Source: Eledone cirrhosa | Lineage: Eukaryota | Length of the DNA stretch: 64,000 nucleotides | NCBI GenBank assembly: GCA_964016885.1 | Contig: OZ024762.1 | Span: 27,342,001-27,406,000 of the forward strand | Direction of reading: 5' to 3' | Shown: positions 17,735 through 20,700 of the stretch, piece after piece | Layout of the letters: each line of letters starts with the position of its first letter | Numbering within the stretch: position 1 is the first letter of the stretch | Notes under the pieces: model-generated | The model's database searches: none | Told to the model about the DNA's origin: nothing | Seen by the model: only the letters and a program-made list of their open reading frames with translations | Made by a program: the position numbers and the translations under genes

Positions 17735-20700
17735 AACTACCAACACAAACACAAACATTACAAACAAAAATCTCGAAAACAAAACAACGACAACACTCCA
17801 AACACAAACACCTACAACAAAACGAAAACACACACACGAACAACAGACAAAAATGAACACAACACAAGAACATTACACATACATAAACAGTGAAAACAAA
17901 ACTTTAATGGAAACTTTTTCGAACTGTGTACACAGACCCAATTTAAAGATGATTAGGGTCTCTACGGACACCTATAAGTCTTTAAAGAAAAACTTTCCTA
18001 AGGACCTGGGTAATCCCTGCGTTAAACCCATTAACCGTGTCCTTTTAAAATGTTTCCCCACCCCCACCCCAGACACCCCCACCCAGACACCCCCATCCCA
18101 CCAGACACCCCATCTCCACCAAACATCTCCGTCCACACCCCGCCAGAAACCACCACACCACCAAACAACCCCTCCAACACCCCCATGGAAATTGTGCAGC
18201 CTGGTCCCTAGGAAACGAAGAGGTGAGTGATTTCTTTTCCTCTTCTTTTAACTTTTCAGCACCAACATGGCTAATATAAGAGTTGGATGTGTTAATGTAC
18301 GCGGCCTGGGGATGCCCTGGAAACAGGGCAAACTCTTAAACGACCTCAGGCTGCACAGTATGGATGTAGTAGCCATTTGCGAGTCCAGGATCTACAGCGA
18401 GTGACAACTGGCCCCCAACTTCGACGACTTTGAGATCTACGCATCTCTCTGTCAGCCAGGAGGTGGGGTTGGGGTTGCCGTTTGCTGCGGAAACACCTGG
18501 ACCTCGTAACACAGACGGTACATCTGAACCCAGAGGGTCGACTGGTGGGCCTAGACGTTGACGGTAGTGAAGGTGGACACCGCGGCCAGACTTCTTCAAA
18601 CGTCTAGAGATTTTCTGGGAAATCCCGCTCCCTGTTGTTAGTGGGGGACTGGAATGGAATCCTAGATGCACGTTGGGACTATGTGGGAGCATGTCCCGAT
18701 AGAGGGGGGTGTAACAGCCTCAAACAGTTAATCGGCCGATTTCAACTGGCCGATAGATATCGACTAGAGTTTCCAAATATGCCACTGTGGACGTGGACCA
18801 ACCAGAGCGGAACATCTAGATCGTACTTAGATAGGTTTCTAGTTAGAGTTAGTGATAGTGACATGTTAAGCTGTCCACAAATGTTCATGGTTGCCTATTC
18901 ATATCACAAACTAGTGACCTGCTTAGTCAACCTTGATAGAACCCATAGACAGGGACGCGGCTACTGGAAGCTGAACTTGTCGTTACCGACATGCAAAGCC
19001 TACAGTACACGGATTAGCACTTAGTTAAGCAGCACTTGACGGTGGCTTGTCAACAACAGATGGTGGTACTCTCTCAAGAGGGCAGTCAGATTAGACTCGA
19101 TAGGTTTTAGTAAAGAATTAGTGTTAGATAGAAATAAGACCGAAAAGGAACTGGTAGATAAAGGAGTGGCAACGTGGCCAGCGTTCTAGCGACGAGAACG
19201 GCCTTGGACCAGCTCTTCGACGCAAAGCGCGAAAGGCGGCGTTATCAGGAGCAAAATAGGTGCTCTGGGAAACGAGGGAACCAAAGCTGTTAGCTGGGCT
19301 TGGGTGACAGAGGCGAAAAGTCCACGATTCGGTCTTTGAAGGACAAAGACGGACGCGTGATACGTGAGCCGAAGCACATGTGCGCCGCCTTTCAGCGGCA
19401 CACTTTGCTCAACTGTTCGGGCAGGGCGGTGCGACGGGAGCGGCTATGGATTTCGGTCCATACCTCGACGGCCTGCCGCGACTCTCGGACAGCGAGGCGA
19501 AGTTCTGTGAAAGGCCGATTTCGGCCGCTGAGATAGGGGGCGCGCTGAGCCAATAAGGCAAACGCAAATCTCCAGTACTCGACGGTCTACCCTACGAATT
19601 TTACGTAACACTGCCGGACTTGTTCTCCGGTCTACTGCAACTGGCAGCAGAACAGGAGAATTCCCAGTTCTGTGACCAAGGAAGTAGTCACGTTAGTGAG
19701 GAAGGACGAGAATAAGGGGCATGACATAGGCAACTTCCGGCCCATAACTCTGCTAAACACAGAGTTACAGATTTTGGCCAAAGTGTTGGCAAAGAGGCTG
19801 GCGCTTGTCGTCAAAAACCTGGTGGGAAAAGCGCAGACATGCGCAATCCCGACTATGTCCATACACGACAACCTCCACCTCATGCGATACATCATAGAGA
19901 GGGTAGAGTGTAAACACGCGCTCAGGCTGCAGCACCTCCACGTATTCCTCACCGGACAACCGGTGTGGGCCACGTTCGTGAGGCGAGCCTTCCCACGACT
20001 CGTCTTGCTGACAGAGCTGCAGTCCTGGGTCAAGCAAAGATCGAGGAAAATGGGCGACTGCCACATCGAATGTGCTCAGGCACTCACAGTTCTCTGGCAA
20101 ACGGACCAGGCGATTAGTTGAGACCCCACTTCGACATTCGATAGAGGTTTGGTCCGCAGCAAGTGCGACGACGTGCTCGGAGAAACTCTAGGCGTAGAGG
20201 AGGACGAACTGGCCAGTCTGTTCGGTAGGACCTTCCGCCCGGGACCGATGGACAACTTCCAAAAGTCCCTGGCCTGGCAGTGCTACCGAGTAGCGCTACC
20301 AGTTCGAGACAAGCTCTACAGACACGGGCGCCCGGGCAGGGACCCTTCGAAAAAGATCTGTCCGAGATGCGTGCGCGAGGAGGAAACCGTCGCGTACGCA
20401 TTTGTACACTGCCCGGGCGTTACCGACCTGTGGGGCTATGTAGAACGACTATTGTCGCCGGTGGGACCAATCCAATTGACCACCGATTCCATTGTCATGA
20501 TCAAACGTCCACCTTCCTTCAAACACGCAAGAGAGGCGGTTTTCCTATGTGTTATGGCTATGGTGAAAGAGGTTATATGGTGGACGAGGTTAAAAGGGCT
20601 GAGGTCAGACATCTTTCTCTCCAGCGAACAACTGATTCGTTTTTTCAAATATCATTTTGGAAGAAGAATCAGGATGGAGAGAGAGGTGCTGTACTCCAGC

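Follow-up and report, generated by a model that had tools for sequence, protein, structure and literature searches.

The window analysed here is a 64,000-nucleotide, microsatellite-rich stretch of the Eledone cirrhosa genome, in which three LINE copies, A, B and C, lie head to tail within (TATC)n repeats (Table 1). All three are dead members of one LINE family that is present in thousands of copies in this 3.0 Gb animal genome. The organisation of a complete element can be seen from two intact relatives, L138 and L140, which have a separate ORF1 of 595 aa and ORF2 of 1,145 aa. ORF2 of L138 matches Pfam PF03372 and PF00078, with PF13966 falling below its cut-off, and the solved structure nearest to it is human L1 ORF2p (E 1e-47; R2 is at 1e-19). 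ORF1 has no match in Pfam; a CX2CX4HX4C motif can be read in its sequence, and the Atlas lead for it is zf-CCHC at 0.92. The ORF2 start lies in a (C)CAAC-ATG-like context in all lineages of the genome. Rfam gave no match over window positions 17600-29900.

Table 1. Features of the LINE copies in the window (positions are those of the window).
Feature	Position	Strand	Remarks
Copy A, dead subfamily A LINE	17730..21006	+	5' edge approximate; 5'-truncated, internally deleted, between (TATC)n repeats
Predicted hairpin GAAGAGG (18217-18223) / CCTCTTC (18239-18245)	18217..18245	+	Covers the donor; z -1.3 in copy A, not significant alone
5' splice-site (U1) motif GAG/GTGAGT, copy A	18220..18228	+	GT at 18223; overlaps ORF1 stop TGA 18224-18226
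CAG, proposed acceptor, copy A	18257..18259	+	Specific to subfamily A, one base from B
ORF2 start context CACCAAC-ATG, copy A	18260..18269	+	ORF2 ATG at 18267
Copy A ORF2, broken: APE, RT, zinc-binding remnant	18267..20775	+	45 codons precede the first stop; domains assigned from intact L138
Candidate far acceptor, copy A: pyrimidine-rich ORF2 end	20755..20776	+	Stop TAG 20773-20775, then G
5'UTR GT-AG intron-like stretch, 67 nt, next copy (B-like)	21082..21148	+
5'UTR GT-AG intron-like stretch, 69 nt, copy C	25356..25424	+
Copy C donor AAG/GTAAGT on ORF1 stop TAA	26902..26921	+	GT at 26907; in predicted hairpin AAAAGGT/ACCTTTT; ORF2 start deleted downstream
Copy C ORF2 end	29602..29610	+	Stop TAG, then G
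5'UTR intron-like stretch, 67 nt, B-type copy	44102..44168	-	Another at 41726-41792

Analysis of 82 3' flanks, of which 51 are TATC-like and 25 ATT-like, indicates a target preference for repeats. Judged from its anatomy, the family works like a microsatellite-targeting Tx1-clade element of the L1 group, and we provisionally label it Tx1-like. The Tx1-clade microsatellite-targeting LINEs Kibi and Koshi (PMC4494074) and the octopus L1-Tx1 families (PMC13282606) have in common with it two ORFs, an ORF2 with APE, RT and zinc-binding regions, insertion into microsatellites and, if the motif in the present ORF1 is a zinc knuckle, a zinc-knuckle-like ORF1, whereas the targets of the Eledone cirrhosa family are (TATC)n and (ATT)n; the available portions of both reports describe no splice signals. 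Within this one family there has been a target switch, with lineages A-C targeting (TATC)n and lineages E-H (L215-L224, L256-L275) targeting (ATT)n.

The first-pass annotation had placed a splice donor over the ORF1 stop of copies A and C, on TGA in the one and TAA in the other, and the sequence bears this out. Conservation of the GT across subfamilies proved much deeper than two copies could show. The core G/GTRAGT is invariant in 7/7 lineages (A, B, C, E, F, G and H) whose ORF2 DNA is 70-91% identical, so that all six donor positions are unchanged, against 61 of 221 fourfold-degenerate ORF2 sites (0.28), a baseline that is lowered slightly by the use of single, partly decayed copies as lineage representatives. 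The naive neutral chance of such invariance is 4e-4 if six sites are counted and ~6e-3 if four are. It can be seen that the donor agrees with the consensus at every position and that only +3 toggles, between A and G. The position of the ORF1 stop relative to the donor varies: the stop falls within the donor in A, B, C and G, follows the donor in E, F, H and sub-lineage A2, and precedes it in family X (described below). GTRAGT occurs just twice in the 5,724-nt intact B element, once as a 5'UTR donor and once as the ORF1-stop donor. The TAG within ORF1 of copy A is a mutation private to that copy, as 28 of 29 other A loci do not have it. We conclude that a genuine donor overlies the ORF1 stop and that it is more conserved than chance allows. 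No description of a conserved LINE donor in this position was found in the literature covered by our searches, which took in few subscription papers and no Repbase reports. Word-indexed searches with the ORF1 protein returned no match; a profile search identified relatives, including some from Octopus sinensis and Argonauta hians, none of which has a spliced C-terminus. Two of these relatives, P0002 (ending DQGK) and P0003 (an Argonauta hians model ending PEGKS), are compatible with the donor, judged from protein sequence alone.

The donor core is also kept in family X, whose ORF2 is 41% identical to that of the Eledone cirrhosa elements. It stands there 13 nt before the ORF2 ATG and is present in 75/76 junction reads (overlapping loci of one assembly), and the base that follows it varies. 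That families with no more than 41% ORF2 identity both keep a perfect donor next to the ORF1 stop indicates that U1 recognition is useful to these elements. Family X comes from tandem arrays of animal-type LINEs in the bacterial-MAG contigs CAXXMW01 (L310-L353, also L349 and L351), which are most likely mis-binned host DNA; the first pass of a metagenome scan gave no match. The sister family Y, represented by one copy (L347:3970-4000), has a TAATG stop-start overlap and no ORF1-end donor, and the clade can therefore do without the donor. No donor was found in about eight distant families at ~28-32% identity. In a quick version of an ORF2 protein tree the Eledone cirrhosa elements fall outside Y plus X, and the donor is therefore either ancestral with loss or was gained twice.

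It had further been proposed that a 37-nt intron fuses ORF1 to ORF2. In copy A this is correct as a reading of the sequence: the AG ends at 18259, and removal of the 37 nt from GT 18223 to AG 18259 gives ETKSTNMANIRVG, in frame with ORF2. The CAG is found in 30/30 subfamily A loci, which were chosen for likeness to the query. Neither the acceptor nor the phase is conserved across subfamilies, however, an outcome that the first-pass annotation had itself named as part of a refutation. B, C, G, H and X lack the AG, which appears in just 1/50 B junctions (28-nt spacer; 60 loci fetched, 10 of them without a junction) and 2/30 C loci (45-nt spacer), and in no G or H spacer. A1 and A3 are the only lineages in which the join keeps the reading frame. 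In sub-lineage A2 the CAG is present but the donor is in phase 1, and the frame is lost; in E, which has a CAG directly before the ORF2 ATG, and in three F-type variants, which have a TAG at 25-28 nt, the join is out of frame because ORF1 ends G/GT AAG TAA there. As to copy C, loss of the acceptor by a deletion after ~26943 holds, but this is not the sole cause, since the C subfamily is itself without the AG. At the AG a single base separates subfamily A from its sister B, and the acceptor is therefore a derived accident. Taken together, the local acceptor and phase do not exceed chance. The pyrimidine share of the spacer is 81-93% in every lineage, whether or not an AG is present. Read-through fusion of ORF1 and ORF2 as a family rule was also considered and rejected, the two sharing a frame only in B and X and not in A or C.

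Spliced transcripts that had been copied back into the genome would be visible as junctions, and pattern searches found none within an element. The direct ORF1-ORF2 junction pattern gave 0 matches. Exon ends of subfamilies A and C go on with T at +6 in 1,484 cases and do not in 48, and none of those 48 strings carries the local join (0/48; 30 loci inspected and 3 fetched later). Subfamily A numbers ~470 copies, as estimated from its 32 occurrences in the first 100 listed of the 1,484, and none of these lacks the 37-nt intron, whereas ~9 such copies are predicted if human SpIREs, at 2%, are taken as the guide. When searched from the acceptor side, 15/15 deviant copies were point variants or a deletion and 0/15 were spliced. 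For subfamily B, 1,488 exon ends go on with G, and none is spliced among the 14 others and the 9 altered by +6 (3 of the 9 inspected, the remainder judged from the matched string). Removal of the 5'UTR intron was seen in 0/6 deviant copies. In none of these searches was a donor of any kind joined to the A acceptor, and the further suggestion that the 5'UTR donor may be spliced to it to give an ORF2-only mRNA is not supported. Genomic copies that had lost ORF2 were likewise not found among the non-canonical junction copies (0/14, 0/9 and 0/48), in searches by exact pattern that miss some possible acceptors. A set of 73 non-canonical pattern matches was rejected as splice junctions, since inspection of 30 of 82 loci showed that the pattern had matched by chance within RT in other subfamilies; it was through them that lineages E-H were reached. 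At the protein level, no fusion-length product exists among 46 close ORF2 relatives, all of which are ≤1,158 aa in a search range extending to 2,004 aa. Contigs of four sequencing runs, whose kind is not on record, showed no GT-AG joint (0 among 15 listed of 269) when compared with an intact B copy, and those of run X4 (kind likewise not on record; contigs drop rare forms) are unspliced across the 5'UTR stretch and the ORF1 donor, observations that weigh neither for nor against splicing.

One lineage does carry junctions at the donor. The four copies of this chimera (L227-L230; G000 C1:394.40 Mb, C1:425.44 Mb, C2:157.62 Mb and C4:239.01 Mb) consist in order of an A exon end, 76 nt of another A-type copy and the last 25 nt of a B ORF1, so that the ORF1 tail derives from three copies and the frame returns to the B stop. 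Both junctions lie exactly at the A donor, each is behind a CAG in the parental sequence, and the second is independent of the selection made by the search. The A donor here bypassed the CAG at 37 nt. The junctions suggest that the ORF1-stop donor can splice to distant sites, and splicing across a tandem array followed by retrotransposition would explain their origin; alternatively, they could be template switches on 2-nt homology, AG alone being common to both sides. A further copy, L171, in which the join runs from a C donor to a TAG within APE, lacks one base and has 4-nt homology, is ambiguous.

Folding predictions show that the pyrimidine tract of the spacer pairs onto the donor in each lineage of the Eledone cirrhosa genome. 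The z scores are negative in 9/9 windows and about -2 or lower in 4/9. The cost of opening the donor is 6.8-13.7 kcal/mol in 16/17 junctions versus 1.8-5.9 for seven 5'UTR donors; composition-matched shuffling of the spacer gave p<0.05 in 3/17 junctions, and 15-21% of other GT windows are equally occluded. A hairpin register common to all lineages was sought and rejected, as the register differs between lineages, and the pyrimidine arm is absent from family X. The predictions thus give modest support to masking of the donor by a fold-back of the spacer. U-rich tracts can also enhance U1 binding in the manner of TIA-1, and the alternative is that the pyrimidine tract acts as such an enhancer instead of as a hairpin arm.

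If the donor is used, candidate acceptors lie at or beyond the end of ORF2. The ORF2 stop is TAG in 54 of 64 distinct ends, followed by G in 49, and in 37/37 family X ends; in lineage G it is TAA. When conserved AG columns are ranked by pyrimidine content, this TAG comes 7th of 87. Family X has a second donor 14 nt after the ORF2 stop in 32/37 distinct 3' regions, with a pyrimidine-tract TAG acceptor 237-263 nt further on in 37/37, and in family Y a donor follows the ORF2 stop by 41 nt. Since the X and Y donors lie close after ORF2 stops and the ORF1 donor is at a stop, donors cluster <50 nt from stops. A junction within ~50 nt of a stop would generally escape nonsense-mediated decay. At the other end of the element, the 5'UTR intron-like stretches of Table 1 have no clear acceptor counterpart in E, F and H. 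B elements open with a short upstream ATG frame, directly ahead of the 5'UTR donor (L138:1005-1022; window 21056-21072 region), and short perfect hairpins are present in the 5'UTRs of all lineages.

We propose, with a probability of roughly 0.45, that the ORF1-stop motif is a selected U1 site that likely serves to splice out ORF2 for an ORF1-only mRNA, the unspliced RNA making ORF2 and being copied. In this L1-group clade the conserved donor would be used in part of the transcripts, whole ORF2 being removed by splicing to a distant acceptor at or after its end; translation of ORF2 from the unspliced RNA would rely on stop-restart over the short spacer, no other RNA would serve efficiently as template for new copies, and fold-back of the spacer would mask the donor so that a share of the RNA stays unspliced. 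Placement near the ORF1 stop would leave the junction within ~50 nt and so evade nonsense-mediated decay. We infer the splicing from this donor, its far acceptor and the reason for its position from sequence features. LINE ORF2 acts with a cis preference (PMC5860796), and since an RNA without ORF2 would not retrotranspose in cis, the absence of spliced copies fits. A wider proposal, somewhat more tentative, is that the clade runs a retrovirus- or copia-like splicing programme, with ORF2 in a 3.5-kb alternative intron, its donor pinned to the ORF1 stop, further introns in the 5' and 3' UTRs, and copying into the genome restricted to RNA from which nothing has been spliced.

Binding of U1 snRNP with splicing only rarely following, so that the motif guards against early cleavage and polyadenylation or aids transcription or nuclear handling (the 5'UTR donor perhaps acting alike), is the most serious of the other readings, though we consider it unlikely. 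It would account for a donor that is conserved without a universally conserved acceptor and for the lack of spliced copies, including those of the 5'UTR intron; moreover, the U1 site of the plant element EVD suppresses premature termination (PMC5580714), and the human L1 donor is seldom spliced while its mutation cuts RNA ~5-fold (PMC5860796). Set against this, ORF2 downstream has few poly(A) hexamers (0-3 per element) that would need protection, constant U1 binding would be hindered by a masking hairpin, and family X has complete donor-acceptor pairs. A motif and hairpin that together form a translational stop-restart signal for ORF2, resembling a donor in look only, would suit the constant location at the stop of ORF1, with 13-46 nt separating it from the ORF2 ATG, the TAATG that takes the place of the motif in family Y, and the requirement of SART1 coupling for RNA structure near its stop-start (PMC5972666). 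We nevertheless regard it as improbable, since every position matches the donor consensus with only the A/G toggle at +3, the same motif recurs in both UTRs far from any restart, the ORF1 stop shifts relative to the motif, and the chimeric junctions of L227-L230 fall exactly at the GT.

The two remaining explanations carry very little weight. Fusion of ORF1 to ORF2 by the 37-nt intron, or use of its CAG by the 5'UTR donor, at least in subfamily A, has genuine signals and frame in A1 and A3 and the uniform CAG of the query-like A loci behind it, but is largely refuted: outside these the AG is missing in B, C, G, H and X or the join is out of frame in E, A2 and the three F-type variants, the close ORF2 relatives include no protein of fusion length, and the chimeric A donor passed over the CAG. 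A fusion or ORF2-only RNA would encode ORF2 and be copied in cis, so the finding of 0 spliced among ~470 A copies, with ~9 expected at 2%, counts against it. That the donor is spelled out by chance or hitch-hiking, through Arg or Gly codons followed by the stop, is the least probable explanation of all; in A, B, C and G two to three of the six invariant bases are indeed those of the stop codon, yet the motif survives three arrangements of the stop and a divergence to 41% protein identity, and the naive neutral probabilities given above are low.

The splicing that we favour has partial precedents. Drosophila copia and the plant Ty1/Copia elements are among the closest known systems. In plant Ty1/Copia (EVD) a GAG-only subgenomic RNA is spliced from a conserved U1 site, and the likeness lies in a conserved U1 donor where the structural gene ends and an unspliced RNA that serves as template (PMC5580714). 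These are LTR elements with one polyprotein ORF, a short intron and early termination (PMC5580714), whereas the element here is a bicistronic LINE with candidate acceptors only. LINEs are thought to use one unspliced two-gene RNA, and splicing is viewed as harmful to them (PMC5860796). Human L1 has a conserved 5'UTR donor, G98U99, which is explained by RUNX3 binding, and SpIREs, the genomic copies of spliced RNAs, make up ~2% of full-length L1 (PMC5860796). A conserved donor that is rarely seen spliced is thus common to both; human L1 differs in that its donor is in the 5'UTR and SpIREs exist (PMC5860796), whereas in the present family the ORF1 stop carries the donor and no in-element spliced copies were found. 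The termination-reinitiation of human L1 and SART1 resembles the present case in that ORF1 and ORF2 are separated by a short spacer or overlap in TAATG, but no splice donor is described for those spacers in the portion of the report available (PMC5972666).

The donor offers a one-base handle on the setting of the ORF1:ORF2 ratio by a LINE and on its choice of template RNA. Should the copia-like programme be true, a large excess of ORF1p over ORF2p would arise via splicing and not from inefficient restart alone. The thousands of copies also spread strong donors in the genome, which could affect host splicing.

Several minor features were noted in the course of the analysis. Near-identical subfamily E elements form a head-to-tail array with a period of ~5.8 kb at G000 C1:423.36-423.41 Mb (L194-L200, L217). 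ORF1 of copy C contains, in inverted orientation, 56 nt from the 3' region of ORF2 (window 26071-26126). Long RT frames with a terminal GIY-YIG-like motif are present at window 34032-36514 (+) and, as a fragment, at 9476-9949 (-), which we take to resemble a Penelope-like element. Window 6027-6440 and 61672-62085 are a near-identical pair 55 kb apart, probably another repeat.
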